A stretch of 64,000 nucleotides of DNA from a virus (IMGVR_UViG_3300042906_000857:3297-67296); one strand, 5' to 3'. Shown: positions 8,417-46,861, counted from the stretch's first letter. The notes: generated by a model not told the origin, from the letters alone. A program made the numbers and translations.

Positions 8417-9934
8417 ATGGTTAATAAACTAAATTACCAACAGGCCAGAAGGGTTAGAGGCTCTAAATTTTCTAATCTATTTCTTGACCAGCTGGCGCAA
8501 CAGGATAGTGTAACATCTGCCATTGGTAAAACCATTTCATTAAAAACTCAAGCTAAGATTAAAGGCATCAAAGAGAGTTTTGATCCTTTGAATATGGTTA
8601 AGTTTTTGACGTTTGGTTCTAAACTTGGACCGGCTCTGTTTGGTAAGTTAACTGGTCGTAAACAAAAAGACATTGACTATTTTACTGGTCGTTCAAAAAG
8701 TGTTGTTGGTGGTATGAATACCGCAGACAAATTGAAAGGCACTGGCCAAGGTGGTGATTCGGCAGGTATTAATGAACAGTTATCAAAGATTTATTCTTTC
8801 TTAAAAACCAGTCGTGAAGATGATATTAAACTAAAAGAAAAATCTAAGAATTTTGAAGAAGAACTCATATCAGAGAAAAAACTCCGCCATGATGAATTAA
8901 TTGAAACATTAAATAAATTGATGAATAACATCCAAGGCGGCAAACCAACATTTGAAAAAGTTCAATCTGGTGAAAGTATGATTGACATGGTAAAACGTAT
9001 GATTGGTGATGCATTTGACAGCATTAAGGATTTGATGGCACTAAAAGACATACTCAAATCTGTTCCTTGGAGTAAACTATTGGGTGTTATGAGGTGGTTT
9101 GGTGGTCCAATAGGTATTGCATTGTTGGGTATAACATCCGCTGCCATGTTTTCTGAATGGTTGAAAGGTTTTATTGGTGAAAATGTTGTCAATAAAAATG
9201 TAATTACACCAGAAAAGGCAGTAGAATTATTGAGAACACCTGATGCATACCGTGCGATTGAGGAATATGGTGGTCGAGAAGCTTTACTTGAAATGGCCAA
9301 AACTGGTTATATTAAGGCCAAAGAAATATTGGAACGTGGTGATATCAAAGAAATAAACCAAGCTGGCGGCGTAGATTTCTTAAAGAAAGTTGAATCTCGT
9401 GGCGCAATTGATACTTCCAATATAGCGCCTGCGGCAGACCTATCACAGTTTAAACCAACTGGACCTAAACGTCCTGAAACCGGTGGTGTGGCTCTACCAG
9501 CTCAACAAAAAGAATGGGATAAAACTTGGAGTAAAGTTTATAATCCAAAAACAGGTAAGCGCCTAGACTTGGACATGGCATCAAGCATGTCCGAACAAGA
9601 TGTGAACAATGAAATGACCCGTATGAAAGGTCGTACACAATCAGTATCTCCTAGTGTTGTGGCACCAGAACCGGTCGTTCCAACACCGGCCGGAAAATTA
9701 ACACCTACGGTTACACCATCACCAGTATCAAGCTTAACAAATAACAATATCACTATGGCTATGGATGCTGCATACACAGGCGCCAAAGCTTCTAAACCTA
9801 TTGTTAACAATACAGTCAACAACACATCATCAAAGAATAAGGAAAGACCTGGTCTAAGACCTAGTCAAATATCGGTGCGTAATGATGAACCCACATTTAT
9901 GGGTTTGATTATTAACTCAACTAGAGTCGTATAA
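8417..9934 (+). CDS. Hypothetical protein (505 aa) with an internal hydrophobic segment; candidate tape-measure or internal protein
   Basis: ORF 4 nt after the previous gene, with a predicted TM segment GGPIGIALLGITSAAMF. Confidence 0.4.
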   Translation: MVNKLNYQQARRVRGSKFSNLFLDQLAQQDSVTSAIGKTISLKTQAKIKGIKESFDPLNMVKFLTFGSKLGPALFGKLTGRKQKDIDYFTGRSKSVVGGMNTADKLKGTGQGGDSAGINEQLSKIYSFLKTSREDDIKLKEKSKNFEEELISEKKLRHDELIETLNKLMNNIQGGKPTFEKVQSGESMIDMVKRMIGDAFDSIKDLMALKDILKSVPWSKLLGVMRWFGGPIGIALLGITSAAMFSEWLKGFIGENVVNKNVITPEKAVELLRTPDAYRAIEEYGGREALLEMAKTGYIKAKEILERGDIKEINQAGGVDFLKKVESRGAIDTSNIAPAADLSQFKPTGPKRPETGGVALPAQQKEWDKTWSKVYNPKTGKRLDLDMASSMSEQDVNNEMTRMKGRTQSVSPSVVAPEPVVPTPAGKLTPTVTPSPVSSLTNNNITMAMDAAYTGAKASKPIVNNTVNNTSSKNKERPGLRPSQISVRNDEPTFMGLIINSTRVV

Positions 9935-31594: not shown

Positions 31595-32395
31595 TTATTT
31601 ACCGTTAGTCTGTACGGTTGGTGTAACCACGCCGTTGATAACTAAAGTTTGACCTTTGAAGTTAGCAATAGCACCTGGCAAATTACGCATGGCATCTGCT
31701 TGTGCTTCTGCCATCAACAAAGGAATTGCCATTGGGTTTGCTTGCATTGATTCGTTACGTTTGCGAGCAGTAGCCACTTTAACTTCTTCTGTCTTGAACT
31801 CGTTCTTGGCCTTAACCAATTCATTGGCACTAGCTACAACACTATCTGCTGGTACAATGTTACGAATCAACACTTGACCAATCACAATAGTACCATCCAA
31901 CTTTTCTTCTGCTAGTGTACGTGTGATCTGTTCTTTGATTTCTGTTTCCATTGCTTGGCGGCTATCAGCCATATCCAATGCTTCGTACTTGCGAGCAGAC
32001 TTGTAGATAGCGTTACGTGCAGCATTGAAGATGTAGTTGTACATCAAGTAAACATCACCATCATGGTTAGCGTGGAAACTACGATTCTTGCTATTGTAGA
32101 TTTCAGCAACCTGTGATTGATTAATGTTGTATGTAATCAAGGCATCAAAGTCTTTCATCGTGCTATTGTCTTTGGCTAGAGGAGTCATATTCTCGGCCAA
32201 AACACTGATCTCTTTGACTGGGAACGTGAGTACATTGCCAATAATAACTTGATTAAACGAACCTGGAAGCAATTCACCTACACTGATCTGTCTATCAAAC
32301 CCCACACGGAGACCAACTTCACCAGTTTCAATACGGGTACAACCTGTTGCCAGTACAGCAACGGCAAGGACGGAAAGAGTTAAAATACGTTTCAT
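31595..32395 (-). CDS. SPFH/Band-7 (prohibitin-like) domain lipoprotein
   Basis: Lipobox LATGCT after a signal peptide, then a TGEVGLRVGF... core resembling SPFH-domain proteins. Confidence 0.4.
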   Translation of the reverse strand: MKRILTLSVLAVAVLATGCTRIETGEVGLRVGFDRQISVGELLPGSFNQVIIGNVLTFPVKEISVLAENMTPLAKDNSTMKDFDALITYNINQSQVAEIYNSKNRSFHANHDGDVYLMYNYIFNAARNAIYKSARKYEALDMADSRQAMETEIKEQITRTLAEEKLDGTIVIGQVLIRNIVPADSVVASANELVKAKNEFKTEEVKVATARKRNESMQANPMAIPLLMAEAQADAMRNLPGAIANFKGQTLVINGVVTPTVQTNGK

Positions 32396-32404
32396 TATAT
32401 CACC

Positions 32405-32596
32405 TTAAAAAAGAATTACGATTACAGTCATTACTAGAACAGCCAGTAATGAGACAATTATACTATACGTTACGGATTTTGTCAAGCTCCAACGTTCTTT
32501 ACCATTCATGTTTCTCCAGGCAGTAACGCCAAAGTGAATGGCAATGGCAAAGATAGCAAATACTAACCAAAGTCTAATCATTCTGATTCTCCACAC
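32405..32596 (-). CDS. Small membrane protein (63 aa)
   Basis: Two TM helices. Confidence 0.3.
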   Translation of the reverse strand: MWRIRMIRLWLVFAIFAIAIHFGVTAWRNMNGKERWSLTKSVTYSIIVSLLAVLVMTVIVILF

Positions 32597-32784
32597 ATTG
32601 TCAAGAAATCTTTACGATATAATTCTTGAATCTTTTCCACAAATTGTTTATTAGCAAACTCATGTGTGAAAACAGGATGACCTAATCGTTTTTCTACATC
32701 ACCATGAAAGTCACCAAACTGGCATGCCGTCACTCCAGTAAAGCCTGTGATTACAATTGATTGTTCTTTAGTAAATTTATTCAT
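32578..32784 (-). CDS. Hypothetical protein (68 aa)
   Basis: ORF only. Confidence 0.3.
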   Translation of the reverse strand: MNKFTKEQSIVITGFTGVTACQFGDFHGDVEKRLGHPVFTHEFANKQFVEKIQELYRKDFLTMCGESE

Positions 32785-33041
32785 TCTCCAACTCCGAAAT
32801 GTTTTAAAATATCAGATTCATACCATTCACCATGATAATCACCGCATCGACCTCTTGACTGTATATGGATTTGTTCCAAACATTCCTGCACAATCAACTT
32901 GGCAAACTTTTCTTTATCAAACACTTCAAAGGTAAGTGGATTGTAAGGAGTGGGGCCTTGAATAGATGTAGCCTGTTCAGCAAGTTCTTGAATTCGTTCG
33001 TTCATTTCAAATATCCCAATCCACTCAACACAAGATAACAA
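32781..33041 (-). CDS. Paralogous small-protein family member 1 (MNERIQELAEQA...KFAKLIVQECL...FGV)
   Basis: Shares an N-terminal MNERI.ELAEQA, a central KFAELIV.EC and a C-terminal FGV with four other ORFs. Confidence 0.5.
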   Translation of the reverse strand: MLSCVEWIGIFEMNERIQELAEQATSIQGPTPYNPLTFEVFDKEKFAKLIVQECLEQIHIQSRGRCGDYHGEWYESDILKHFGVGE

Positions 33042-33087
33042 AATACAATGCCAACAACAAAGTGCAGCCAGTCACGAGGAGTATTTT

Positions 33088-33294
33088 TCATGATTCAACT
33101 CCAAAGTATTCTTCAATATATGATGCTGCCTGGAGTTGTCCTGCGTAAAATGCATCATTCATACCACGATTATAGCATTGATCTAGGCATTTCTGAACAA
33201 TCAACTCGGCAAACGTTTCCATCCAAGCCATACTGCCAACTGGAAATGCTTCTTTAGATGCCTGTTCGGCAAGTTGTCTAATTCGTTCGTTCAT
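33088..33294 (-). CDS. Paralogous small-protein family member 2
   Basis: MNERIRQLAEQA...FAELIVQKCL...YFGVES. Confidence 0.5.
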   Translation of the reverse strand: MNERIRQLAEQASKEAFPVGSMAWMETFAELIVQKCLDQCYNRGMNDAFYAGQLQAASYIEEYFGVES

Positions 33295-33406
33295 TCTTCA
33301 TTTGCCTTAATAAGAACCATTAGAAATTTCAATTCCGATAATTGCACTGGAATCTCTGATCCCATTTCCATCCCTGTAATAAGAGATTGTAGATATTCAA
33401 TTGGGG

Positions 33407-33646
33407 TCATCGTTTAACTCCAAATTGTCGTGAAATTCGATATGCCACATTGCCTACTGCATTTGATTCATCAAGGAGGCCGGCACTTTCAAACTCATCT
33501 TCTCTGTTTTTAGCAATAGTAAGACATTCTTTCACAATCAACTCGGCGAACTTTTTGAGTTCTTGTTCACAATCATCACCGGATTCTGAAAACCAAGAAT
33601 CCATAAATCCAGCATGCTCGGCAAGTTCTCTAATTCGTTCGTTCAT
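33407..33646 (-). CDS. Paralogous small-protein family member 3
   Basis: MNERIRELAEHA...KFAELIVKECL...QFGVKR. Confidence 0.5.
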   Translation of the reverse strand: MNERIRELAEHAGFMDSWFSESGDDCEQELKKFAELIVKECLTIAKNREDEFESAGLLDESNAVGNVAYRISRQFGVKR

Positions 33647-33888
33647 AATTCTTTACCCATTCTACCCAATGTTTCAGGCGCATGGTCCAAATAATGTTCA
33701 CCATCTTCGTGATAAAAGAAAGCATCTGCATCCGTGATTGTCATACAAATATCACTATGTTTCAAATCATAGTCCACAAAGGTATGATCTGCAGCATACA
33801 CTCTGAACACAAGGATATCATAGTCAACTCTCAATAACACACCATTAACTCCGTTTGCGGATACTGGTGTCAAGTTTAGTTTACTCAT
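33643..33888 (-). CDS. Hypothetical protein (81 aa)
   Basis: ORF only; 4-nt overlap. Confidence 0.3.
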   Translation of the reverse strand: MSKLNLTPVSANGVNGVLLRVDYDILVFRVYAADHTFVDYDLKHSDICMTITDADAFFYHEDGEHYLDHAPETLGRMGKEL

Positions 33889-33890
33889 GA

Positions 33891-34124
33891 TTAAACAATA
33901 CGTCCAGTTACATTGTAAATTAAATCATTCAAAACGTTTTGATAGTCTTTACCATTACGCCGTAACATCCAAATTTGTTGTACCAATTGACTAGAATCAT
34001 ATGGGCCAGCCATTGACGGTAATTCACCACGAGATTCCAATTCTTCAATTAGATCATCGGTTTCAAAATCACACAGGTCAACATCAACTTCAACTTCTCT
34101 GTAAAACGTTTTACGATTATTCAT
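33891..34124 (-). CDS. Hypothetical protein (77 aa)
   Basis: ORF only. Confidence 0.3.
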   Translation of the reverse strand: MNNRKTFYREVEVDVDLCDFETDDLIEELESRGELPSMAGPYDSSQLVQQIWMLRRNGKDYQNVLNDLIYNVTGRIV

Positions 34125-34297
34125 TTTTTAATCCTTACCTTCTTAATCTTCTCAGGCTTTTGCTTGCGTTCGAATTCTAATTTCAACTCTAATGCTATGG
34201 CTGCAGCCTTAACCGATTCTTCGTGGTCAGCCATCAACTTATTGTATTCTTCTTCTGTGACCACATCACTATTCCATTTGAATGTTGCTTCAGTCAT
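34121..34297 (-). CDS. Small ORF (58 aa, MTEATFKWNSDVV...), not in the track, filling the gap between neighbours with ATGA overlaps on both sides
   Basis: Translated by hand. Stop/start overlaps at 34294-34297 and 34121-34124. Confidence 0.3.
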   Translation of the reverse strand: MTEATFKWNSDVVTEEEYNKLMADHEESVKAAAIALELKLEFERKQKPEKIKKVRIKK

Positions 34298-34608
34298 TTT
34301 ATTTCAGATAAATCTTTTGATAATCTACGGTGAAAAGTATCTTCACCATCATCACCAGAAACCAACCAATCAATTCGCTGAGCATAGGCGTGTGCCTTAC
34401 GCAATGTAATCAATGCTTGTTTGAATTCTTCGATTGTATTTGGTGTGAAATGACAACCTTTTGTTGATCCATAGTCATCCAATTCATCAGAATCATTGTC
34501 TATAATCAGCTGTTCAACATCATCAGCAATTGAACCTATCTGATATTGTTTGTATTGAAAATGTCCACCACTCATGTTTAATCTCCAATTTGGCCAATTT
34601 CTGTCCAT
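34294..34608 (-). CDS. Hypothetical protein (104 aa)
   Basis: ORF only. Confidence 0.3.
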   Translation of the reverse strand: MDRNWPNWRLNMSGGHFQYKQYQIGSIADDVEQLIIDNDSDELDDYGSTKGCHFTPNTIEEFKQALITLRKAHAYAQRIDWLVSGDDGEDTFHRRLSKDLSEIK

Positions 34609-34949
34609 GTCCTGTGTGTTTCAGCAACCCATTCCATGCCATCATGTTCTTCAATATACCAATCAACATCATCAGGCACGTTTGCAATTGCCAAAAGGGC
34701 GCAATAAGCATTAGATTTTACACCTAATTCCTCAACTACTGCCACCAAATCGGCATCACTTCTGTCACTAACAAATTCACGATCATATAAAAAGTATTTA
34801 CTATCACCAAGATGGCCTGCTTCATAATAATGTTTATAACCATTACGATCCTGAGTCTCAAAAAGAATACGTTTACGATTCAATAGTTTTTCAAAGCCCA
34901 TATCTGAAAGGCCAAATCCACCATAACAACGATTAATTACAATTTTCAT
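34578..34949 (-). CDS. Hypothetical protein (123 aa)
   Basis: ORF only. Confidence 0.3.
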   Translation of the reverse strand: MKIVINRCYGGFGLSDMGFEKLLNRKRILFETQDRNGYKHYYEAGHLGDSKYFLYDREFVSDRSDADLVAVVEELGVKSNAYCALLAIANVPDDVDWYIEEHDGMEWVAETHRTWTEIGQIGD

Positions 34950-35043
34950 TCTCTGTCCACCCTTGCATCTTCATTCATAATAAAACCATACCCAAACACC
35001 AACAACAGTCCACATTAAAAACCAAGCCGATAGTGTGTACATA

Positions 35044-35922
35044 TTAACCACAGACTGTGTACTCCGCCAAATCTTTCCAGTTCTTACCTGCGCTCTTACG
35101 GATTTTAGTTACCTGAATTAGTGTACGCAACGACAATTCTTTTACAGTATCTTTAACGGACTCAATCAAATCCATGGCATCTTGCTTCTCTGACTTGTCA
35201 AACTCAGGCATAAACTCACCTGTGTTCAATAGGTGACGCATACGCTCAATCTTTTGCATCTTGGTCATTGATAGGTCAACTGCCATTGAACGGGTAATGA
35301 TTGCTTGGTCAATCTGTGATGATGCCAAATTGGAGATAAACACAATACGACCTTTGAATTCAAAGGTTGTAGGCAAATCTTCATCACGGATATCCGCACG
35401 CCATGAAATGATACGCTTAGAATAAGAATCTAATGCGCCTTTCAATAGGTTCAATGATACTGGATCCTTTAGTACTGAATCACAATCATCAAATACAATC
35501 ACGCCATCTTTGTTCTCATACAATGTACGGTACAAACCTTTAGGTGTAGAGTAACCTTTGATAACACGGAAAGATTTTGGACCATTGACCTTGGTGCCAA
35601 CGGCCAATTCTTCTACTGTGGATACATCGGTGAAACCATTGGCGGACAGCGTTTGGTTGACGGTAAACGACTTACCAAGACCACCAGGACCAGTCACCAC
35701 GACCGATGCCTGAGCACCTTGAGCAAGCATAGTCACCATGTCGGACACGAAACCGAAGCGCTCGTTGATAGTGAACCGTGATTCTGTTGGTACGGATGCA
35801 ATAGAGGACTCAATACCAGCCTTGCGGATGACGTAATCCATATGCTCTTTTTTAGACCGCTTGATGGTCTTACCATTGATAACCGCAACATACTTACCAC
35901 CAACAAACTTTACATCAACCAT
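35044..35922 (-). CDS. P-loop (AAA-like) ATPase of unknown function
   Basis: Walker A VVVTGPGGLGKSF and Walker B GVIVFDDCD. Confidence 0.55.
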   Translation of the reverse strand: MVDVKFVGGKYVAVINGKTIKRSKKEHMDYVIRKAGIESSIASVPTESRFTINERFGFVSDMVTMLAQGAQASVVVTGPGGLGKSFTVNQTLSANGFTDVSTVEELAVGTKVNGPKSFRVIKGYSTPKGLYRTLYENKDGVIVFDDCDSVLKDPVSLNLLKGALDSYSKRIISWRADIRDEDLPTTFEFKGRIVFISNLASSQIDQAIITRSMAVDLSMTKMQKIERMRHLLNTGEFMPEFDKSEKQDAMDLIESVKDTVKELSLRTLIQVTKIRKSAGKNWKDLAEYTVCG

Positions 35923-35945
35923 TGAATTCGTCCTTTAATCAATCA

Positions 35946-35986
35946 ATAGAGTCCATTATACAGGTACCAGCGCAAAAGGCAAGCGT
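35946..35986 (-). promoter_or_regulatory. Sigma70-type promoter module (minus strand): TTGCCT-N16-TG-TATAAT with GGCAAGC signature, upstream of the ATPase gene
   Basis: The reverse complement of 35952-35985 is gcTTGCCTtttgcgctggtaccTGTATAATgg. An AAGGAC-type RBS and the ATG at 35922 follow. Confidence 0.45.
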
Positions 35987-35994
35987 TTTCTTAG

Positions 35995-36029
35995 TAGTCC
36001 ACCGTGGTGGTGGACTATTTGTTGTTTTT
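35995..36029 (+). terminator. Hairpin plus T-run in plus-strand orientation with no plus-strand gene upstream
   Basis: TAGTCCACC-gtggt-GGTGGACTA followed by TTTGTTGTTTTT. Confidence 0.3.
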
Positions 36030-36107
36030 ACACAACACTTTTTTGAGTGTTTTCATTCATAAATGATACTTGCATTTAATGAAAGTTTCTGACATTTTCA
36101 ATAAATC

Positions 36108-36365
36108 CTAAGCAAAGAACTTTTGGCCAAAGAATGTTTCGTCCATTTTCTTAACTTCTAACTCTTTTGGTGTATATTCCATTTGTACCCATACTCCATC
36201 CACCTTGGCAGCAGTGATATTGAAAGAATATACAGAACCAATCTCGGTTTGGTACCCTTCAACTTCAGCCAAACGCCTAGTACCACGCATATTGTCTTTC
36301 ATCGTACCGTACCATCCACTGTTTAATAGGATACGCATACCTTTTTTGATTTCTGCTGTTTTCAT
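36108..36365 (-). CDS. Hypothetical protein (start moved to the internal ATG at 36365 to remove the overlap)
   Basis: ORF only. Confidence 0.3.
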   Translation of the reverse strand: MKTAEIKKGMRILLNSGWYGTMKDNMRGTRRLAEVEGYQTEIGSVYSFNITAAKVDGVWVQMEYTPKELEVKKMDETFFGQKFFA

Positions 36366-36366
36366 A

Positions 36367-36756
36367 TTACCACCAAGAATCATAGTAAACGGCATCACCA
36401 GCAGCAATGGCTTCTCGTGCCTTAACAATAAACTTCAAATCGTTTCGCATTGAACCATCATCAGGTGGATTTTCACCAAAAAAGAAACCAGTGGTTTGTG
36501 GCAACTCACACATGACCACGGCTTTCTCTAGTGCATCCAAATCTTCTGTGTACAACCGCATTGCCGCACAATTGAATTCACTTTTAGGTCCACCTTTGGT
36601 CTTATACAGTTTGGCCATCCATCCGTGCAGGTCATGGTGTTTGCGCCAGTAGTGCAATTCATCATATTCTTTATCATCAGAACTAGGTTTCACCATGTTG
36701 AAATCATCAATCACCTCGGATTGCTTGCAACGCCATGCATACATATCTAAACCCAT
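36367..36756 (-). CDS. Hypothetical protein (129 aa)
   Basis: ORF only. Confidence 0.3.
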   Translation of the reverse strand: MGLDMYAWRCKQSEVIDDFNMVKPSSDDKEYDELHYWRKHHDLHGWMAKLYKTKGGPKSEFNCAAMRLYTEDLDALEKAVVMCELPQTTGFFFGENPPDDGSMRNDLKFIVKAREAIAAGDAVYYDSWW

Positions 36757-36962
36757 TATTTCACTCCAAACATTAAAGCACCAGCAGCGGTAGGAAACTT
36801 GTTGCCATACTCGGCAATTTCCTTTTCATCGATTGATTGGTCATGACCAACACCGACACCGATGTAATACTTATCACCAAACAACTCATCCTCAACACGG
36901 ACAATACCAACTGAACCATTACCAGAGGTAAACCAAACAGAATCAATAATTTTCATAATCAA
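36756..36962 (-). CDS. Hypothetical protein (68 aa)
   Basis: ORF only. A promoter-like module lies upstream at ~36985-37025. Confidence 0.3.
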   Translation of the reverse strand: MIMKIIDSVWFTSGNGSVGIVRVEDELFGDKYYIGVGVGHDQSIDEKEIAEYGNKFPTAAGALMFGVK

Positions 36963-37025
36963 TACCTATAACAACATTAAAACGGAACACCGACAGTATA
37001 ACATACAATCGAAACCATGGCAAGC

Positions 37026-37199
37026 CTAATCTTCTCGCAATTCGGCATAAACATTGGCCAATAAGTCCAATGCTTCTTGAATGTTCATCATCAAAGGTGA
37101 ACCTGGATCTTCATTACTCTTTTTTAACCACCGTTGTACTTCCATGATAGAATCTTCGGCGTGACTAATGGTGGACGCTTTGTTATTTGATTTCATCAT
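37026..37199 (-). CDS. Small ORF (57 aa, MMKSNNKASTISHAEDS...), not in the track
   Basis: Translated by hand. Its ATG overlaps the stop of paralog 4 (ATGA). Confidence 0.25.
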   Translation of the reverse strand: MMKSNNKASTISHAEDSIMEVQRWLKKSNEDPGSPLMMNIQEALDLLANVYAELRED

Positions 37200-37405
37200 T
37201 CAACTCCGAAATGTTCATACAAATCTTGAGGGGTAGCATGACCTGAACGGGAATAAACAACTTCAGCACATTCCCGCACAATCAACTCGGCGAACTTTTC
37301 CATAGTTTGAGCATGAAACTCATCATTATCATCCATTGCGTCTGGATAATTCTTACAGACCCATTCTTCAGCCTGTTCGGCCAGTTTTCGAATTCGTTTA
37401 TTCAT
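37196..37405 (-). CDS. Paralogous small-protein family member 4
   Basis: MNKRIRKLAEQA...KFAELIVRECA...HFGVE. Confidence 0.5.
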   Translation of the reverse strand: MNKRIRKLAEQAEEWVCKNYPDAMDDNDEFHAQTMEKFAELIVRECAEVVYSRSGHATPQDLYEHFGVE

Positions 37406-37408
37406 TCT

Positions 37409-37615
37409 TCAACTCCTAAATGTTCCTTTGATTTCACTCCAACAGGCAAGTGCAGAGTTATCTTTTTTCATAACATATTCACAGATTTTCATACATTCCC
37501 ATACAATCAGGTCGGCGAACTTTTCTGCGTCAAACCCAATCTCTAGTAACTCACCATTTACACCGTAAGTTTCAATTTGGCACTGTTCTAAAAGTTTTTC
37601 AATTCGTTCGTTCAT
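37409..37615 (-). CDS. Paralogous small-protein family member 5 (most divergent)
   Basis: MNERIEKLLEQC...KFADLIVWECM. Confidence 0.45.
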   Translation of the reverse strand: MNERIEKLLEQCQIETYGVNGELLEIGFDAEKFADLIVWECMKICEYVMKKDNSALACWSEIKGTFRS

Positions 37616-39876: not shown

Positions 39877-40135
39877 AACTCATCCACTCATCGTATTCCG
39901 TTGGTTGACCGTCATCATCATAAAAATCTGATTCTATCTTGATACCACGATTATCCAGTTCCGATTGTAATTCCTCATCCGTGAAATTATCGTAACCTTT
40001 GAAACCAGTCCGTAGATAAGAATTTAATAGTTCCGCAGAATCCATATGGATGATACTATCCCAATCAATATCCACTAGAGTATCAATAACTGCTGACCTG
40101 TATTCTTCCGAATAACTAATAACTTTACCTGACAT
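39860..40135 (-). CDS. Hypothetical acidic protein (91 aa)
   Basis: ORF only. Confidence 0.3.
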   Translation of the reverse strand: MSGKVISYSEEYRSAVIDTLVDIDWDSIIHMDSAELLNSYLRTGFKGYDNFTDEELQSELDNRGIKIESDFYDDDGQPTEYDEWMSYDADC

Positions 40136-40189
40136 AAAACACCTTATAATAAGAAGAAATGAAATAAAAATTCATCATGCGTATATTGT

Positions 40190-40340
40190 CGCAAACCTTG
40201 TCGCAACCTCGATAGTACCTGAATCTAAATGAGAATCAATCGCAATAAGGCTTACCTGAACCATCGCAATTGGTCGCACCTTTGAGTAACCAATGAGTCT
40301 TAGTCTGTGGTTCCCACCGGTTTTTACCTGAAAAGTGGCC
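40190..40340. repeat. Iteron-like short direct repeats: TCGCAA x5 (TGTCGCAA x2, ATCGCAAT x2) and TACCTGAA x3
   Basis: gtcgcaaaccttgtcgcaacc...aatcgcaataagg...catcgcaattggtcgcacc, with tacctgaa at ~40217, 40253 and 40323. Confidence 0.5.
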
Positions 40341-40355
40341 GAAATTCATGGAACC

Positions 40356-40544
40356 TCAGTCTGCCTCAGAGCAATTAAAACACTTTACCTCGAAAGTGTG
40401 TATAATACCATACACTTCATCCGAGAAACCAAGGGCACACAATCGCTTTTGTTCGGACGTGACTAACTCATTAGCGAGACCATGCTTCCACACGAGCTCT
40501 GCAAAGTCTAGAAGGTCCATCGCAACTTGCTTCATTTTTCCCAT
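40356..40544 (-). CDS. First gene of the leftward early transcription unit (62 aa, CxxC-containing)
   Basis: ATG at 40544 with an AAGGAC RBS, ~20 nt downstream of the TSS predicted for promoter B. Confidence 0.35.
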   Translation of the reverse strand: MGKMKQVAMDLLDFAELVWKHGLANELVTSEQKRLCALGFSDEVYGIIHTFEVKCFNCSEAD

Positions 40545-40564
40545 AGTGTGTCCTTGTTATCAAT

Positions 40565-40632
40565 CATGCCATTATACAGGTTTCGGTCTAAATGGCAAGC
40601 CATACTTGACCGGACTGCTGGACTATTGGCCA
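40565..40632 (-). promoter_or_regulatory. Promoter B (minus strand): upstream element plus GGCTTGCCA-N16-TG-TATAAT
   Basis: The reverse complement of 40571-40632 is ccaatagtccagcagtccggtcaagtatggCTTGCCAtttagaccgaaaccTGTATAATggc. Confidence 0.55.
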
Positions 40633-40663
40633 TAAGTGTTGTTTTTTTGCATCATAAGGTGGT

Positions 40664-40730
40664 ATTGTACAGGTTCTGGCCGGAATGGCAAGCATTGATT
40701 TTATACTTGACCGGAATGCTATGGCAAGCG
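40664..40730 (-). promoter_or_regulatory. Promoters C and C2 (minus strand, tandem): TTGCCA-N16-TG-TACAAT, and TTGCCA-N17/18-TAAAAT 35 bp upstream
   Basis: The reverse complement is cttgccattccggccagaaccTGTACAATacc. A second -35 TTGCCA at 40727..40722 has TAAAAT at 40703..40698. Confidence 0.45.
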
Positions 40731-40802
40731 GGGTGTTGTTTTTCTGCAACACGGATGGCGTCACGCAGGCGCCACGTCCACCCCCTTGCTGTTCGAATGG
40801 TC

Positions 40803-40903
40803 CCATTATACACGAACCGACCGAAAAGGCAAGCCCCCCCTCCAATACCCAGCACTCCGGTCAAGAATGGTTGCCTTTTCCCCTGGTTGTGGTATAATAC
40901 ACT
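40803..40903. promoter_or_regulatory. Back-to-back divergent promoter pair D: minus-strand TTGCCT-N16-TG-TATAAT (40832..40805) and plus-strand CCAATAcCCAGCAcTCCGGTCAAGaATGG-TTGCCT-N16-TGG-TATAAT (40843..40898)
   Basis: Read directly: ...cattatacacgaaccgaccgaaaaggcaagcc ccccc tccaatacccagcactccggtcaagaatggttgccttttcccctggttgtggtataatac. Confidence 0.55.
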
Positions 40904-41002
40904 CATGCAAAACGAAAAGACAATTCTAATCACCGCCTCTGGTAAGGTTATGGTTTTCTCCGTTCGCTCCTGCGCTGTACTGTACCAGCAGGCATTCGGT
41001 GG

Positions 41003-41068
41003 TATCTTGACCGATTTGGTCAAGTATCCAGAAAACGCTTGCCAAAACCAATCGGTTCTGGTATAATA
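41003..41068 (+). promoter_or_regulatory. Plus-strand promoter TTGCCA-N17-GG-TATAAT preceded by a perfect inverted repeat CTTGACC-gattt-GGTCAAG (41006-41024)
   Basis: Read directly. It is followed by AACGAAAAGGAC, the RBS, and ATG 41098. Confidence 0.55.
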
Positions 41069-41097
41069 CACTCATATTTAAACGAAAAGGACTTTTT

Positions 41098-41397
41098 ATG
41101 ATAGTTTACACTCCCTCCGCCGCTGCTAAGGCAGTATCATTGGCCGCTGAATTGAAAGCAGAGCGTGCTGTGCTTGCTACTAGTAAGCTCTTGGTTGCTG
41201 CTCTTGCTCGTGAATTGAAAACCCAAAAGCAATTGGCTAAGGACGAAAAGCAGCATGCTCTTGTCCACCGCCGTAACGTGGCTATCGGCAAAGCTCAAGA
41301 TAAGCTTCAGAAGCTTTTGGATAAACAAAATCTGGTTGGTGCGAAAGCTAACAAAGCGAACCGTAAACCTTCCAAGGCCGTGAGCGTTACAGTATGA
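41098..41397 (+). CDS. Ala/Lys-rich coiled-coil small protein (99 aa)
   Basis: ORF with a strong promoter and RBS. Its stop overlaps the next ATG (ATGA). Confidence 0.45.
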   Translation: MIVYTPSAAAKAVSLAAELKAERAVLATSKLLVAALARELKTQKQLAKDEKQHALVHRRNVAIGKAQDKLQKLLDKQNLVGAKANKANRKPSKAVSVTV

Positions 41398-41495
41398 GCG
41401 ATATCCATGCAAAGGCCAGCGTGGCCATTTGGGTGACCTTGGCAATTGCTGTCGTGGTCTTAGGTATGGACTTATTCTTTTGGAGACCACTATGA
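41394..41495 (+). CDS. 33-aa single-TM micro-protein (MSDIHAKASVAIWVTLAIAVVVLGMDLFFWRPL), not in the track
   Basis: ATGA overlap with the upstream stop, and its own TGA overlaps the next ATG; a translationally coupled chain. Confidence 0.3.
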   Translation: MSDIHAKASVAIWVTLAIAVVVLGMDLFFWRPL

Positions 41496-41713
41496 GCATA
41501 GCTCTTCCTTTTAAGTGTATGATATTGGACAGTGAGCCAGTATTGGTGAAAAACCGATTCTCCGGTGAAGGCATTATGCTTACGCCAGAAGCGGTTGCGG
41601 TGTATGATTCTATTATGGGCGCCGAAATGATTGGTTCGTATGATATCGTCCGCAAGGGTATCGATTGGTTTAGGGCACACTTCCCGGAAGCTTACATGGT
41701 TTTGCTAGATTAG
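41492..41713 (+). CDS. Hypothetical protein (73 aa; start at MSIALPF with a GGAG RBS)
   Basis: The ORF-track start at 41429 lacks an RBS. 41492 has GGAG 7 nt upstream. Confidence 0.4.
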   Translation: MSIALPFKCMILDSEPVLVKNRFSGEGIMLTPEAVAVYDSIMGAEMIGSYDIVRKGIDWFRAHFPEAYMVLLD

Positions 41714-41715
41714 GC

Positions 41716-41788
41716 AAGCCCCAGCTAGTACTTGACCGGAGTGGTGGAGTACTGGTTGCCAAAAGCACTGCTTTCTGGTATAATACCA
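41716..41788 (+). promoter_or_regulatory. Plus-strand promoter: AGTACTTGACCGGAGTGGTGGAGTACTGG-TTGCCA-N17-TGG-TATAAT
   Basis: Read directly. It is followed by AACGAAAAGGAttcggaATG (41825). Confidence 0.55.
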
Positions 41789-41824
41789 TCATACAGTAAC
41801 AAAACGGAACGAAAAGGATTCGGA

Positions 41825-42469
41825 ATGATAAAGCTCTCAAAAACAAGCAAGCTAGACGGTGTAAAATCATGGTCACTCCAGGCTATTGAGACCTGCCCCG
41901 GTTCAATGGGTACCGATGGCCAATTGGTTGCTGCTTGTTCTGGTTGCTATGCCACCACCGGTATGTACAATTTTCCAGGCGTGAAGGCACCCCGTGCTTT
42001 CAATAAAGAGGACTGGAAGCGTGCTGATTTTGTTGCTGATTTTATCGTAGCGCTTAAAAAAGAAAAGTACTTCCGCTGGTTCGATTCTGGCGATATGTAC
42101 TCCCTGGACTTGGCGGAGAAAATGTACGCCATCATGGTTGCTACGCCTACAGTGAAGCACTGGTTGCCTACACGTATGGCTAAATTCTTAAAATTCCAGG
42201 CCATACTTGCTAAAATGCAAGCACTGCCTAACGTGATGGTCCGATTCAGCTCCGATGCTATCGATGGTACCTATACATCAAAGCATGGTAGCACAATCTT
42301 ACCTGCTACTGCTACTGTACCTGCCGGCGTGACCTTGTGCCGTGCTTATGAGCGTGGTGGTAAATGCGAATCATGCCGTGCTTGCTATGACAAATCCGTG
42401 GCAGTCATTGGTTATCCCGCTCACGGTAAGAAAATGGGCAAGGTTATTCGGTTGGCAATAGCGGCATAA
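41825..42469 (+). CDS. Cys-motif protein (214 aa), possibly Gp37/Gp68 (DUF5131)-like
   Basis: N-terminal CPGSMGTDGQLVAACSGCYATTG and C-terminal CESCRACYDKS. A W..P/TR pattern is reminiscent of DUF5131. The start was chosen by the RBS and promoter position. Confidence 0.4.
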   Translation: MIKLSKTSKLDGVKSWSLQAIETCPGSMGTDGQLVAACSGCYATTGMYNFPGVKAPRAFNKEDWKRADFVADFIVALKKEKYFRWFDSGDMYSLDLAEKMYAIMVATPTVKHWLPTRMAKFLKFQAILAKMQALPNVMVRFSSDAIDGTYTSKHGSTILPATATVPAGVTLCRAYERGGKCESCRACYDKSVAVIGYPAHGKKMGKVIRLAIAA

Positions 42470-42477
42470 TTTGGTTA

Positions 42478-42545
42478 TAATCCCCCTGAGGCTCGGCCGG
42501 ATAGGGGATTGGGACTGCTCTGCAATGGGGCAGTCCCTTTTTTTG
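42478..42545 (+). terminator. Tandem hairpins ending in an intrinsic terminator (GGGACTGC-tctgcaatgg-GCAGTCCC + TTTTTTT)
   Basis: AATCCCCC...AGGGGATT hairpin, then an 8-bp G/C stem and a T-run at 42538-42545. Confidence 0.6.
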
Positions 42546-42556
42546 CTCTGAGGTTT

Positions 42557-42735
42557 GCTGGTGGTGGCTGGTTGGTGAGCGCTGTGGTGGCATCATTAGC
42601 AATAAAAAGCCCCACCTGGTCAAACTCTTTATTCGCATTTTTTATTTTCTGGTACCTCCCAATGGATTTTCGAAAATATTAATTTTTTTCTCCTGCGGAT
42701 TTTTCGAGGTACCTCTATTTTGAGGAACCTCTATC
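42557..42735. promoter_or_regulatory. Chi octamer GCTGGTGG (42557-42564) in a GTGG-rich stretch, plus three copies of the palindrome GAGGTACCTC / GAGGAACCTC (42638-42731)
   Basis: Read directly: tttGCTGGTGGtggctggttggtg...ctGGTACCTCcc...cGAGGTACCTCtattttGAGGAACCTCtat. Confidence 0.4.
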
Positions 42736-42936
42736 TCATTCCCACTCAATTGGTATTTCACCTAATACATTCATACCACTTTCTCTACCAGCCTCAAAGG
42801 CAGCCTTCATCCATTTCATTGTGAACGCATACTTACCAAGGTCATCGGAGTTTTTCAACGCATCGAATTCTTCGTAAAATCGTTCCGACCTCATACAAAA
42901 GGATTCAGTCTCACAGAACCAATCTTCGAATATCAT
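42736..42936 (-). CDS. Hypothetical protein (66 aa)
   Basis: ORF only. Confidence 0.3.
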   Translation of the reverse strand: MIFEDWFCETESFCMRSERFYEEFDALKNSDDLGKYAFTMKWMKAAFEAGRESGMNVLGEIPIEWE

Positions 42937-43475
42937 ACAGTTTTACTTTTAATATTTTCGATGACGCTTTTTATAAGATTGATATCAGCTCGTTGTTCAT
43001 ACGATCCAATAAAGAATCCTTGAATTTTATTCAGTCCTCTCAGTTTATCTACATGAGACACATTGATATAAAAGTAAGGTGATACCAGTGTGCCTGCGTC
43101 TGCGTACGGATCACCTCTCATGAATTCATAGTGTTTACGATCTACATACTCAGTGTACTCTTTGAAGTTACCTGCAACTATGTACACATACAGGTCTGGA
43201 TTAGGTGAGTTTGTTGCGCTAGCACCACCAGAACCCACAGTGTTTAATGTGTGTTTGCCGATAGCAGTACCGGTACCTATAGACCATTGTGCGGGAGGAT
43301 TAGATGAAACACTTTGGGTTGTGTTGACACTTCGAACACCAAGTAGACTAGCCACTTTGTTAGCCTCATCGATATAATCCTGCCACGGGGTCTTACCACT
43401 TGGCCTTAGCATCGGATCAGGTTGCTTTGAAACGTTTTCGAAAACTTGGTTTGGTATGTGTGTTTTTATTGCCAT
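42933..43475 (-). CDS. Hypothetical protein (180 aa)
   Basis: ORF. A GC hairpin (GGAAGCGC x2) lies in the 5' leader at 43490-43520. Confidence 0.35.
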   Translation of the reverse strand: MAIKTHIPNQVFENVSKQPDPMLRPSGKTPWQDYIDEANKVASLLGVRSVNTTQSVSSNPPAQWSIGTGTAIGKHTLNTVGSGGASATNSPNPDLYVYIVAGNFKEYTEYVDRKHYEFMRGDPYADAGTLVSPYFYINVSHVDKLRGLNKIQGFFIGSYEQRADINLIKSVIENIKSKTV

Positions 43476-43663
43476 AATATGTCCGGAAGCGCCCCTCTCG
43501 GAAGCGCTGGAAAAGTCAGAAGGTCATTGAGTTGGTTCAAAGTAATACTTGAATAGTTTTACGTAATAGGCGAATCTGATTGGTTCTTGTTCGGGGTCAG
43601 GTAGTTTGTTACCAAAAATTTCTACCATTCTATTGTATTTTTCTTGTAGTTCGGTTTCTGTCA

Positions 43664-44137
43664 TTACGAATAATACTTGTCGTATAGTCTTTGTAGAGTG
43701 GTCATAACATCTGTTTCAGACATTATGTTTGCATCTTTTAATGAATCGGACAACGGTGCGATAGACCAACGGCCAGTTTCAACGTTTCTCCAAGTCTCAA
43801 TTAAAATCTCATTGTCACGATGTTGTATGATTCTCTGTGAGTTGATTTCTTTCAGATCATGTTCAGGGAATTGGAAGTTTCGTTTCACTGAATCCTTGTG
43901 TACAAATAGTACATAGTTTTCTAAATTCTTGTCCTCAACATATTCTCCAGATTCGTTTTGACTGACTCCGTAGTTTTCGAAAATAATTTTTACTTCTGAT
44001 AAGGACGAAATGTTTTCTCCGTTATCAAACTTCTCTGCATCGATTAATCGGTTATCTAGAATTTTAGTAACTAACATTACATATTGTTGAATATCGTATT
44101 CCATTTTTTTTATTCCTCGTTGTAAATACTGGACCAA
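43664..44137 (-). CDS. Hypothetical protein (157 aa)
   Basis: ORF only. Confidence 0.35.
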   Translation of the reverse strand: MVQYLQRGIKKMEYDIQQYVMLVTKILDNRLIDAEKFDNGENISSLSEVKIIFENYGVSQNESGEYVEDKNLENYVLFVHKDSVKRNFQFPEHDLKEINSQRIIQHRDNEILIETWRNVETGRWSIAPLSDSLKDANIMSETDVMTTLQRLYDKYYS

Positions 44138-44397: not shown

Positions 44398-44632
44398 TCA
44401 ATAGAGTTGCACCAAAACCAGGTCCAATAAAATTCTCAGCTATAAAAATGGCCTCGCCTTCGGTGGATGCCAAAGTTTTGGTAAAGATCATCTCACCAAT
44501 GTACAAGGTTACTTCCCATTTTTGAAACCTCGCATCCCAATGATGTGGTGATTCTTTACTGATTACCGCCTTCCTATCTCCACTGGCAAATTCTGAATAT
44601 ACGTTCATATCAATTTCCTTTTTTTTATGCAA
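44381..44632 (-). CDS. Hypothetical protein (83 aa)
   Basis: ORF only. Confidence 0.3.
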   Translation of the reverse strand: MHKKKEIDMNVYSEFASGDRKAVISKESPHHWDARFQKWEVTLYIGEMIFTKTLASTEGEAIFIAENFIGPGFGATLLNENNG

Positions 44633-46691
44633 TTAGTTTAATGAACCGATTAAGAATCACTCGATTGTTAACACGGCTGTTGGTGTACTTAGAGAATTCA
44701 GAAACCAATTTTCTGGTGGTTGAATTCTCGTTCACATCCATTTCATTGGTATCTTCGGTGTCCATACCATTTGACCTCAACATATAGTACTCATCAAAGC
44801 CAGTCGTATCAATGACTCCGAATTTATTCTTTTTGAATGATTCTTTGAAGTTTTCTCTCCATGTCATGGAAGTTTCTGGACAAATAACATTCAGTGCTGA
44901 GGTCAAATCTTTAGTAGTAGCAACATAGAATCCAACAACGTGTGAGTTTGTACGCTTTCTCAACAAACGAATTAGTCCGTTGGTTTGGTCAAATCTACCA
45001 CCATAAGTTGTTTCGTACTTTTCTTGATTCTTTGTTTTTGGATCACGCATCACTACATGCGAAACTCTCCTACTAGAGGAATTCGTATTGATGGCAGAAT
45101 AACCACGGGAATCGTTATCATCACGAATCATGGAAAGTTGTCGACCTTCACCATCAGTTAAGAAAACTGTATTCACAATTTGTAATTTGTTCTTTTTTTG
45201 AAATGCAGGAACAATCTCCATGGCACATATGATTGCTTCATTGAGAGGAGTTCCCGTCATACGCAACCACCAAGGTCCTGCTTGATAATTACGACTTGTA
45301 CCTAAACCAGCCATGTGGAACAGAGCACCACCAGCAGTTAACATTTCAGAAGCCGACATTTTACTGGACAATAAGTTAACGAGACCAAATGAATGTAATA
45401 CTATGTCACCGTTTTTCACTCCAGATACGGCACTGTTATACATTTTTTCTGGTTCAGTTTCTTCCACAAAAGCATAAACTTCAAAAGGAATATTAACCTT
45501 CTTACAGAACATAACCAGATTGAATAATTGTTTTACTGTATTGCCAATGTGTGATGACATAGAACCAGACCAATCTAGAAATAATACTAGGCCGTGCGAT
45601 TTGCCACCAGGAACAACCATGGTCTTCTTGAAGATATCTTCGTTGAACTGATAAGAGAAAATCTTATTCATGTCCAGGTCACCAGTTTTTGCAGTAGAAG
45701 AACGTTTCATTTGGTCAGCGTTTTTACGCATCTCAAATTCTTTAACAAGATAAGAAACTACTTTATTGGATTCTTGCCGAAACTTGTTAAATTCTTTGCG
45801 ATTAACGGTGTGTTCTTCCTCAACATATCTCTTCCAAACATCCTTATATTCAAAAATGACTTGGCTTACATCAACTTTTGGAATATTGACATAATTGTAT
45901 TCTGTTTTTCCTGTATCGAAAAGTCTACTTTCATTCTCACGATATGCATCATCGGTGAAAGAACGAATTTCTTCTTCTTCGGCTTTTCCTGTCAATCTTG
46001 TTTTTTCTTCTTTTTCATCATCAGAATTACTTTCGACAGAACCAGTTTCAATATCAACTTCTTCGTATTCACCGGTACCTTGTTCATCACCTTCCTCAAA
46101 GCCTTCGAATTTTAATTTATTTTCTTTGATTTCTTCATTCTTCATTTTCATGTATTCAACGATGCGGTCAGCAACTTCGATAACATCATCATATGTTTCG
46201 GTTGTTTCTACATCATTTAACAGATCACGTTCAAAATCAGTGAATTGAATACCTAAGGTAACACCACCTTTGCAATAAAGGTTCAATCGGTCAATAAAAT
46301 TAAGTTCATTAACATCCTTATCTATTACACCAAAGAAATCTTTGTCTAACAATTCTTGATATGCTTTGATAAATGAGTTTCTTAGGCCTGGATATTTGTA
46401 TTTGATTTTTCGTTCAATGCGGGAATCTTCAACCACATTCAAAACGGACATATTCTTTTTCAGTTCGATAGCCTTTGACATTCCTTCGAATGGTGTGTAC
46501 AAAGCATGGCCGACTTCGTGACCCATAAACAGGTCATATAGTTGAGGTGATATATCATTATCTAAAACCGGAACCGTCAAGATACGATTACGTACATCGA
46601 ATGATGCTGTTGGAACTTTGCGTTGTTCTACGGTAAGGTTTTCTGTGGCCATCAATTTGGCCAATAACGATTTGTAATCAATCAAACTCAT
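44625..46691 (-). CDS. cobT: CobT-like protein: N-terminal HExxH motif, acidic low-complexity middle, C-terminal VWA domain
   Basis: HEVGHALYTP near the N-terminus, an E/D-rich stretch at ~190-250, and VWA-like LFLDWSGSM...DGE. Confidence 0.5.
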   Translation of the reverse strand: MSLIDYKSLLAKLMATENLTVEQRKVPTASFDVRNRILTVPVLDNDISPQLYDLFMGHEVGHALYTPFEGMSKAIELKKNMSVLNVVEDSRIERKIKYKYPGLRNSFIKAYQELLDKDFFGVIDKDVNELNFIDRLNLYCKGGVTLGIQFTDFERDLLNDVETTETYDDVIEVADRIVEYMKMKNEEIKENKLKFEGFEEGDEQGTGEYEEVDIETGSVESNSDDEKEEKTRLTGKAEEEEIRSFTDDAYRENESRLFDTGKTEYNYVNIPKVDVSQVIFEYKDVWKRYVEEEHTVNRKEFNKFRQESNKVVSYLVKEFEMRKNADQMKRSSTAKTGDLDMNKIFSYQFNEDIFKKTMVVPGGKSHGLVLFLDWSGSMSSHIGNTVKQLFNLVMFCKKVNIPFEVYAFVEETEPEKMYNSAVSGVKNGDIVLHSFGLVNLLSSKMSASEMLTAGGALFHMAGLGTSRNYQAGPWWLRMTGTPLNEAIICAMEIVPAFQKKNKLQIVNTVFLTDGEGRQLSMIRDDNDSRGYSAINTNSSSRRVSHVVMRDPKTKNQEKYETTYGGRFDQTNGLIRLLRKRTNSHVVGFYVATTKDLTSALNVICPETSMTWRENFKESFKKNKFGVIDTTGFDEYYMLRSNGMDTEDTNEMDVNENSTTRKLVSEFSKYTNSRVNNRVILNRFIKLIA

Positions 46692-46693
46692 AA

Positions 46694-46861
46694 TTATTTC
46701 TTTTTCAGTGTTATTTTACCATCTTCAGCGGTAACAATTAATACATCATCTTCTTTCCATCCAAGTTCTTCGCAGATTTCAGGTGGAATAGTCAACATAA
46801 TATTTTCTTCATCACCTGGAATGACCTGGAAGATTTCTTCCTGCGTATAACTCTTACTCAT
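46694..46861 (-). CDS. AbrB/MazE/SpoVT-like swapped-hairpin small protein (55 aa), not in the track
   Basis: MSKSYTQEEIFQVIPGDEENIMLTIPPEICEELGWKEDDVLIVTAEDGKITLKKK resembles the AbrB-type DNA-binding fold motif (I/LP.E....G...GD.L....E.G.I.L). Confidence 0.4.
   Translation of the reverse strand: MSKSYTQEEIFQVIPGDEENIMLTIPPEICEELGWKEDDVLIVTAEDGKITLKKK

Follow-up and report, generated by a model that had tools for sequence, protein, structure and literature searches.

A family of small phage proteins in which two variable cassettes alternate with three conserved blocks is encoded five times in a 64,000-nt stretch of DNA (IMGVR_UViG_3300042906_000857:3297-67296), here called the window, with all coordinates counted from its first letter. 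The window is part of a large T4-like phage, uncultured and of freshwater origin, and the five paralogs all lie on its minus strand in the region 31–39.5 kb, sharing the architecture C1 (MNERIxxLAEQA) – V1 – C2 (EKFAELIVxEC) – V2 – C3 (HFGVE). We find the family to be real, abundant and undescribed, and its diversification by cassette shuffling at conserved intragenic joints to be well supported. As the probable explanation we propose a scaffold-plus-two-cassette family of binders, whose repertoire would be built by homologous recombination at the three conserved joints.

A hidden Markov model (HMM) built from the five copies and run against all six-frame open reading frames (ORFs) of the window returned these five matches only (E 1.7e-34 to 3.8e-29), with no sixth copy and the next best match at E 0.16. 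The sequence-only reading, an earlier model-written description of the window, had listed the same five ORFs and their shared N-terminal, central and C-terminal motifs; the ORFs and the blocks are borne out, but on the minus strand and with some amendment at the ends. What it gave as the first ORF (32781..33041) is the maximal, TTG-started frame, and both the family alignment and public gene calls place the true start of copy 1 at the ATG at 33005; the C-terminal FGV it assigned to all five is present in four, copy 5 ending in GTFRS. Relative to copy 1 the other copies are 35–42% identical, and the residues invariant in all five cluster in the three blocks (M1, N2, R4, I5, L8 and E10; F A. L I V.. 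C; and F).

Copy 1 (32781..33005 (-), 74 aa) comprises C1 at 32970-33005 (MNERIQELAEQA), V1 at 32913-32969, C2 at 32880-32912 (EKFAKLIVQEC), V2 at 32802-32879 and C3 with its stop codon at 32781-32801 (HFGVGE). In copy 2 (33088..33294 (-), 68 aa) the corresponding segments are 33259-33294, 33220-33258, 33187-33219 (ETFAELIVQKC), 33109-33186 and 33088-33108 (YFGVES; GGAGTTGAATCATGA), and in copy 3 (33407..33646 (-), 79 aa) they are 33611-33646, 33557-33610, 33524-33556 (KKFAELIVKEC), 33428-33523 and 33407-33427 (QFGVKR). The second cluster holds copy 4 (37196..37405 (-), 69 aa), with C1 at 37370-37405 (MNKRIRKLAEQA), V1 at 37301-37369, C2 at 37268-37300 (EKFAELIVREC), V2 at 37214-37267 and C3 plus stop at 37196-37213 (HFGVE), and copy 5 (37409..37615 (-), 68 aa), with C1 at 37580-37615 (MNERIEKLLEQC), V1 at 37526-37579, C2 at 37493-37525 (EKFADLIVWEC), V2 at 37424-37492 and an end at 37409-37423 that reads TFRS before the stop. 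The DNA of this last end (ACATTTAGGAGTTGA) is the C3 block CATTTCGGAGTTGAA in a shifted frame, and the 'FRS' cassette of copy 5 recurs in many homologs. Copies 5 and 4 are separated by 3 nt, copies 3 and 2 by 112 nt (containing a 39-aa ORF) and copies 2 and 1 by 82 nt. At the copy 5/copy 4 junction (37396..37426 (-), ...CATTTAGGAGTTGAAGAATGAATAAACGA) the C3 DNA block, with GGAG ~8 nt before the copy 4 ATG, is followed by the start of C1, the whole forming a contiguous conserved C3-C1 joint.

The family, which the sequence-only reading did not recognise, has no counterpart in Pfam, PHROGs, PDB or the cultured phages searched. Pfam gave no match at E < 0.02 for the five copies, everything lying under the curated cut-offs, and none of 70 members matched at E ≤ 0.01; in PHROGs v4 the five window copies matched nothing at E ≤ 0.01, and the best result among the 70 members was one isolated match at E 0.0074. 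A PDB sequence search yielded only a spurious Pumilio repeat, BFVD matches were limited to uncharacterised members of the same family, Rfam had no match, and a text search of the literature for the family motifs matched no papers. Relatives in cultured phages were likewise not found by megablast of 30–40 kb or by tblastn with copy 3 and with a composite sequence close to the family consensus, which left one weak uncultured match at E 0.1. Databases list proteins identical to those of the window, annotated 'hypothetical protein', from a 172,157-bp contig and from many shorter metagenomic contigs.

In metagenomic phage DNA the family is large. A word-indexed search returned at least 7,987 significant homologs (7,987 of 8,000 candidates), and an exhaustive HMM search found 8,429 representatives at 50% identity with E ≤ 1e-3, 1,569 of them at E ≤ 1e-10, nearly all 65–110 aa long. 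By HMM count there are 331 copies in 86 loci, 1–15 per locus, always on a single strand and mostly in tandem, so that the design noticed in the window, conserved termini and centre around a variable core in tandem multiple copies, holds family-wide. The sources are uncultured, mostly freshwater, phage contigs, reaching 374 kb in IMG/VR; in bacterial genome collections the matches were confined to freshwater contigs of metagenome-assembled genomes, which are probably mis-binned phage DNA and therefore offer no host clue. The proteins are acidic (median pI 4.86, net charge about -6), and no convincing fused domain emerged from the longer members, which are mostly read-through into the next ORF. 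With its 50%-identity clusters numbering more than 8,000, genomes that carry as many as 15 copies, and no curated database entry, the family ranks among the larger uncharacterised small-protein families of environmental phages.

The variable segments behave as interchangeable units. Across the family V1 spans 9–43 aa and V2 10–50 aa, in keeping with the variation in length and sequence between the blocks described earlier, and this variation takes the form of discrete cassette types and not of a continuum: the types are mutually unalignable and differ in length and predicted structure. Homologs re-pair the very cassettes of the window: in P0005 copy 1's V1 is joined to copy 3's V2, and in P0011 copy 5's V1 to copy 4's V2. 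Over 513 sequences, and taking less than 30% identity as unrelated, 82% of the 1,842 pairs with V1 at least 90% identical carry unrelated V2 segments, and 48% of the 366 pairs with V2 at least 90% identical carry unrelated V1 segments; when only genes from the fetched loci are counted, a set not biased by the window's profile, the other cassette is unrelated in 94% of V1-sharing and 89% of V2-sharing pairs. Clustering of the 513 sequences resolves 259 V1 types and 296 V2 types in 457 combinations, with the V1 of copy 1 pairing with 28 V2 types, that of copy 5 with 25 and that of copy 4 with 10, and the V2 of copy 2 with 14 V1 types. The histories of V1 and V2 are uncoupled, and the cassettes reassort almost freely. 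Within a cassette type the ratio of nonsynonymous to synonymous substitution rates (dN/dS, Nei-Gojobori) is 0.11 for V1 and 0.14 for V2 at dS ~0.8, and the cassettes thus encode functional peptides under purifying selection. Site-wise positive selection, as the sequence-only reading implied it, therefore finds no support within cassettes; it is whole cassettes that are replaced, by recombination. Such whole-cassette replacement at dN/dS ~0.1 differs from the pattern expected of the targets of diversity-generating retroelements, although neither a reverse transcriptase nor a template repeat was searched for.

The exchange can be followed between phages. P0070 resides in a different phage with different neighbours and was recovered identically in two independent assemblies from different samples. 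When the 15.7-kb locus of that phage, L087, was compared with the whole window by blastn, similarity was found inside family genes only: 88% DNA identity over 130 nt to C1+V1+C2 of copy 1, and 80% over 149 nt (L087:10095-10243) to C2+V2+C3 of copy 3, these two long matches overlapping in C2, in addition to short matches to the conserved blocks of other copies. More generally, among 224 segments of inter-contig homology (≥80% identity, ≥70 nt) only 3 span a whole gene with both flanks, and the remainder start or end at C1, C2 or C3. The units so delimited run from upstream to C1 (30), from C1 to C2 (31), from upstream to C2 (28), from C2 to C3 (17), from C2 to downstream (16) and from C3 to downstream (33). 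Two metagenomic proteins, P0121 (116 aa; C1-V-C2-V-C2-V-C3, with two C2 blocks) and P0172 (109 aa, with two C3 blocks), look from their block order like the products of unequal crossover.

The blocks are conserved as DNA as well as protein. In codon counts from 269 unique copies, set against the share of each codon for its amino acid in neighbouring genes, several conserved residues are fixed on a nearly single, non-preferred codon: Arg4 on CGA (182/208, 88%, against a background of 13%), Lys33 on AAG (181/216, against 35%), Ala35 on GCC (193/247, 78%, against 22%), Glu36 on GAG (173/208, 83%, against 25%), Leu37 on TTG (191/251, against 26%), Gly73 on GGA (207/218, 95%, against 22%) and Val74 on GTT (178/195, against 36%). 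Val39, Phe34, Phe72 and Gln11 are conserved yet free at the third codon position, which argues that protein-level and nucleotide-level constraints coexist. Conservation sets in exactly at the ATG and lasts ~35 nt, with only a Shine-Dalgarno sequence upstream and nothing downstream. Block identity is the same within as between genomes (0.69 vs 0.70 for C1; 0.76 vs 0.75 for C2), which indicates a family-wide pool and not one homogenised per genome; concerted evolution within genomes is rejected on the same grounds. Pairing between C1 and C2, as RNA or DNA, was likewise considered as a cause of the codon fixation and rejected, the best registers being 0.69–0.73 paired and covariation no higher than in shuffles (0.657 vs 0.653; 0.709 vs 0.704).

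C3 carries a second message. The family gene ends in ATGA in 189 of 263 cases, against 22% of non-family neighbours, and GGAG stands 7–22 nt before the end, again in 189 of 263, against 8%; an ORF of at least 35 aa starts at the embedded ATG in 182 of the 263 (69%), being a non-family gene in 119 cases and a family gene in 63. All five window copies carry GGAGTT(G/A)A..(A)TGA, and the next ATG overlaps the stop codon except after copy 5, where it follows 3 nt later: the ATGA of copy 1 overlaps the start of a DUF7736-like gene (32578-32784), that of copy 3 the 39-aa ORF and that of copy 4 a 57-aa ORF at 37026-37199. The C-terminal FGV block noted earlier is thus conserved, but largely at the nucleotide level, as ribosome-binding site and overlapping start for the next gene. 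A GGAG Shine-Dalgarno sequence with an ATGA start explains both the fixed GGA-GTT codons and the persistence of the block in the frameshifted type of copy 5, and it makes each gene a self-contained insert that preserves expression of the gene that follows.

AlphaFold2 models were built with family alignments for copies 1 and 4, whose cassettes are unrelated, and both are confident three-helix models. Copy 1 (predicted local distance difference test, pLDDT, 84.4; predicted template modelling score, pTM, 0.70) is modelled with helices at 3-11, 31-50 and 59-70 and a beta-hairpin at 13-29, and copy 4 (pLDDT 83, pTM 0.70) with helices at 3-19, 28-53 and 59-66 and a helical V1. The three helices containing C1, C2 and C3 are common to both predictions, whereas V1 differs, a hairpin in the one and helical in the other, and V2 is placed at the end of helix 2 and in the loop to helix 3. 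A predicted helical scaffold that holds structurally different V1 inserts fits the interchangeable binding modules envisaged in the sequence-only reading.

In light of these results we propose that, in these stand-alone proteins of 65–100 aa, C1 would form helix 1, C2 the start of helix 2 and the I..HF of C3 the end of helix 3 of a common scaffold, with V1 linking helices 1 and 2, and V2 running from the end of helix 2 through the loop after it into the start of helix 3. The repertoire would arise from homologous recombination and not from point mutation, the joints being the conserved blocks of ~35, 33 and 20 nt, held similar at the nucleotide level. Crossovers in C2 would re-pair V1 with V2, those in C1 or C3 would replace, insert or delete whole genes in the tandem arrays, and the GGAG and ATGA of C3 would let a cassette enter ahead of any gene with translation of the latter unbroken. 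Exchange may proceed through the phage's general recombination during co-infection. The proteins themselves, to judge from their small size, acidity, location in early regions, multi-copy arrays and unrelated cassettes each under purifying selection, would be made early and would bind or inhibit variable targets in the host or in competitors, serving host takeover or anti-defence, with specificity set by the combination of cassettes.

Several observations weigh against this proposal. Neither a target nor a partner gene, fused functional domain or structural relative came to light, and the binder or anti-defence role is therefore one that we infer. Early expression is not reflected in any enrichment of sigma-70-like promoter sites (21 vs 21.2 expected), and terminator-like sites are not enriched either (4 vs 4.4 expected). 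Rare codons fixed family-wide with no excess of identity within genomes go beyond simple homogenisation and may require nucleotide-level selection or a dedicated mechanism. Finally, the data are mostly metagenome assemblies, in which repeated blocks can create chimeras; this objection is countered by the identical recovery of P0070 in two assemblies, by shared cassettes that are 80–88% and not 100% identical, and by recombinant types found on up to 15 contigs.

The codon evidence would suit an alternative that we consider unlikely, namely that the three blocks act in cis, as nuclease or homing targets or as hotspots of recombination, and are kept for that purpose and not for the protein, with a phage nuclease cutting them and repair from another copy converting the adjacent cassette, as with Seg/Mob in T4 or in pilS-to-pilE conversion. 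Besides the family-wide rare codons, the equal block identity within and between genomes and the retention of C3 DNA even in another reading frame speak for it, as does the commonest neighbour across the related loci, a stand-alone GIY-YIG nuclease domain of ~105–160 aa encoded on the same strand in ~23 of 83 loci (L041:16372-16863, L078:7794-8144, L050:11233-11547 and ~20 further loci). Its gene sometimes lies only 3 nt upstream of a family copy; the domain, a candidate driver of localized gene conversion, matches phrog_5123 and, at 23.6 bits (cut-off 22.6), PF01541. No GIY-YIG gene of this type, however, occurs in the 64-kb window, and ~70% of loci lack one; the free third positions of V39, F34, F72 and Q11 imply protein-level constraint, the nucleotide conservation of C3 is already accounted for by the Shine-Dalgarno and ATGA junction, and in T4-like phages short homology suffices for efficient recombination, with no need of dedicated sites. 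A broader form of the idea, possible though on the improbable side, is that the blocks are dedicated joints, maybe serviced by the GIY-YIG protein, through which freshwater phages share a combinatorial library of at least 259 x 296 cassette types in 513 sequences; if true, this would let phage populations as a whole rapidly produce new specificities against host defences, with genes that are plug-and-play and bring their own translational coupler. We regard as quite improbable that the products are capsid-packaged, injected internal proteins like T4 IPI/II/III, with MNERIxxLAE|QA a targeting sequence cut by the prohead protease after (L/I)-x-E and an anti-restriction body. The T4 capsid-targeting sequence (CTS) is MKTYQEFIAE, and the family's N-terminal decamer ends in L-A-E much as that leader ends in I-A-E, L8-x-E10 being present in all five copies and L8 and E10 ~90% conserved family-wide, a resemblance of sequence only; the size is near that of the 76-residue IPI*, and the phage carrying the copies is T4-like. 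The T-even internal proteins, too, are a highly diverse, defence-countering set that shares only the CTS (PMC3012670). The leader in the present family is not portable, though: of the 123 ORFs in 83 loci that bear it, 121 also have C2 and C3 complete, and this near confinement to family ORFs weakens the internal-protein account. Helix 1 is moreover modelled confidently as part of the fold (pLDDT 88–93), structural comparison with IPI* shows no similarity, the gene neighbourhood is one of early and DNA-metabolism functions, and the family also occurs on contigs of jumbo-phage size (the 374 kb mentioned above). Jumbo phages may use proteases of other cleavage specificities.

Tandem paralogs with a variable core are also what an ordinary family diversifying by point mutation under positive selection would present, as the sequence-only reading implied, but we now judge this very improbable and largely refuted by the low dN/dS inside shared cassette types, by the discrete, mutually unalignable nature of those types with their different lengths and predicted structures, and by the uncoupled histories of V1 and V2. 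Least credence of all goes to an artefact, be it chimeric assembly across short repeats or conservation of the blocks through C1–C2 RNA pairing. Short conserved blocks could mislead de Bruijn assemblers, and C1 and C2 are partly complementary; against this stand the independent recovery of P0070 and the divergence of shared cassettes described above, and, for the RNA variant, pairing that lacks covariation beyond shuffles and a family that has no Rfam match.

The genomic surroundings were examined in the window and across the related loci. Family genes sit in a same-strand run of small ORFs. In the related loci they are often accompanied by genes for DNA ligase, a 5'-3' exonuclease, an Rv2179c-like 3'-5' exonuclease and a metallophosphoesterase, company that identifies the region as one of early or DNA-metabolism genes. 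No partner gene is consistently linked, the best true neighbour family occurring in ~17–23 of 83 loci. A neighbour cluster of 23 loci was discarded as an antisense-ORF artefact of the family itself: long spurious ORFs antisense to the arrays, such as L040:10150-10746 (-) (…SAPACSASSLIRSFI…), cluster across those loci because the conserved blocks are also conserved in reverse translation, and they can easily mislead automatic gene callers. The closest syntenic relative found, L013 (IMGVR_UViG_3300021429_002418, 65.7 kb), has 20 gene families in common with the window in the same order, and only two family copies, at backbone positions different from the window's. Deposited phage genomes gave no nucleotide match to the window.

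In the window itself the interval between the two clusters (33647..37195 (-), 3.5 kb) holds ~11 small same-strand early-type ORFs and no family members; within it lies a 292-aa P-loop (GPGGLGKS) protein, phrog_1250, at 35044-35922 (-). The DUF7736/phrog_13999 protein (68 aa, 32578-32784 (-)) starts at the terminal ATGA of copy 1, and its gene is thus translationally coupled to the array; after it come a 63-aa predicted membrane ORF (32405-32596) and a Band_7/SPFH-type lipoprotein (31595-32395). The wider gene content includes a tail protein (phrog_350), ribonucleotide reductase, a radical-SAM protein, a CobS-like ATPase and a phrog_459 peptidase (688 aa, 44625-46691 (-)) with ~36% identity to cultured cyanomyophage and pelagimyophage proteins. 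Directly upstream of this 'peptidase' stands a small MazE/AbrB-like ORF (46694-46861 (-); Pfam MazE_antitoxin in public gene calls). Positions 40000-44000 form a compositional island, with a GC content of 0.42–0.45 vs ~0.37 elsewhere, GC skew near zero and opposite-strand genes that include a GP88/DUF7227-like ORF (41732-42469, +), and may be a separately acquired module. On the plus strand, two adjacent ORFs of exactly 505 aa each (6896-8413 and 8417-9934) share one 44-aa segment only (39% identity, E 4e-6), and the first of them carries a KP(A/E)(D/E)VKP proline/lysine-rich repeat.

The family offers a clean natural example of sub-genic modular evolution, in which short sequences double as core of the fold and joints for recombination and, at the 3' end, also provide a translation signal, and its family-wide fixation of rare codons raises the question of whether homology for recombination is itself under selection. 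If the cassettes set binding specificity, the family would constitute a ready-made natural scaffold library and a strong candidate pool for new host-takeover or anti-defence proteins in phages of abundant freshwater bacteria.

Among known systems, the gp38 adhesin of T2/T6-type phages provides a functional analogy. There, glycine-rich motifs (GRMs) separate hypervariable segments (HVSs) of restricted palette (Trojet et al. 2011, PMC3157838; Tetart et al. 1998), and the conserved motifs are thought to be both structural core and preferred sites of recombinational exchange, giving chimeric proteins and new combinations (PMC3157838). Both designs alternate short conserved motifs with variable segments exchanged in or near the motifs, but no sequence or fold relationship is evident (no Pfam or PHROG match): the motifs of the present family are helical and not glycine-rich, its genes lie in early or DNA-metabolism regions and not at the tail-fibre locus, and its products are ~70-aa, helical, acidic and cytoplasmic-looking and probably not virion or tail-fibre proteins. 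They further occur in tandem arrays of up to 15, have two cassettes to gp38's four, and use their 3' block also as ribosome-binding site and start for the next gene.

The internal proteins of T-even phages, whose loci share a conserved capsid-targeting sequence according to a passage of PMC3012670 (citing Repoila et al. 1994), and of which that passage describes IPI* as a 76-residue anti-restriction protein, are likewise small, diverse T4-type phage proteins with a conserved N-terminal leader of ~10 residues ending in (L/I)-A-E. The leader of the present family differs in that it almost always accompanies C2 and C3 (121/123) and is modelled within the fold, and there are three conserved blocks vs one. 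The promoter-early stem-loop (PeSL) cassettes that underlie modular shuffling in T4-type genomes (Arbiol et al. 2010, PMC2839356; Comeau et al. 2014, PMC4122927) resemble the family's joints as short repeats in hyperplastic early regions, where small ORFs are gained, lost and replaced, and in carrying expression signals. PeSLs, however, are intergenic promoter/terminator motifs that move whole genes, whereas the joints described here are intragenic and shuffle half-genes as well, and their signal is translational (Shine-Dalgarno plus ATGA), promoter and terminator matches not being enriched. At Neisseria pilE/pilS, too, conserved blocks flank minicassettes, and gene conversion gives combinatorial variants of one scaffold protein, a likeness that extends to conserved blocks flanking variable cassettes on a single scaffold. 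In Neisseria, one expression locus draws on silent donors in the same genome; in the phage family, by contrast, all copies appear to be expressed and the donors are dispersed among the genomes of many phages.

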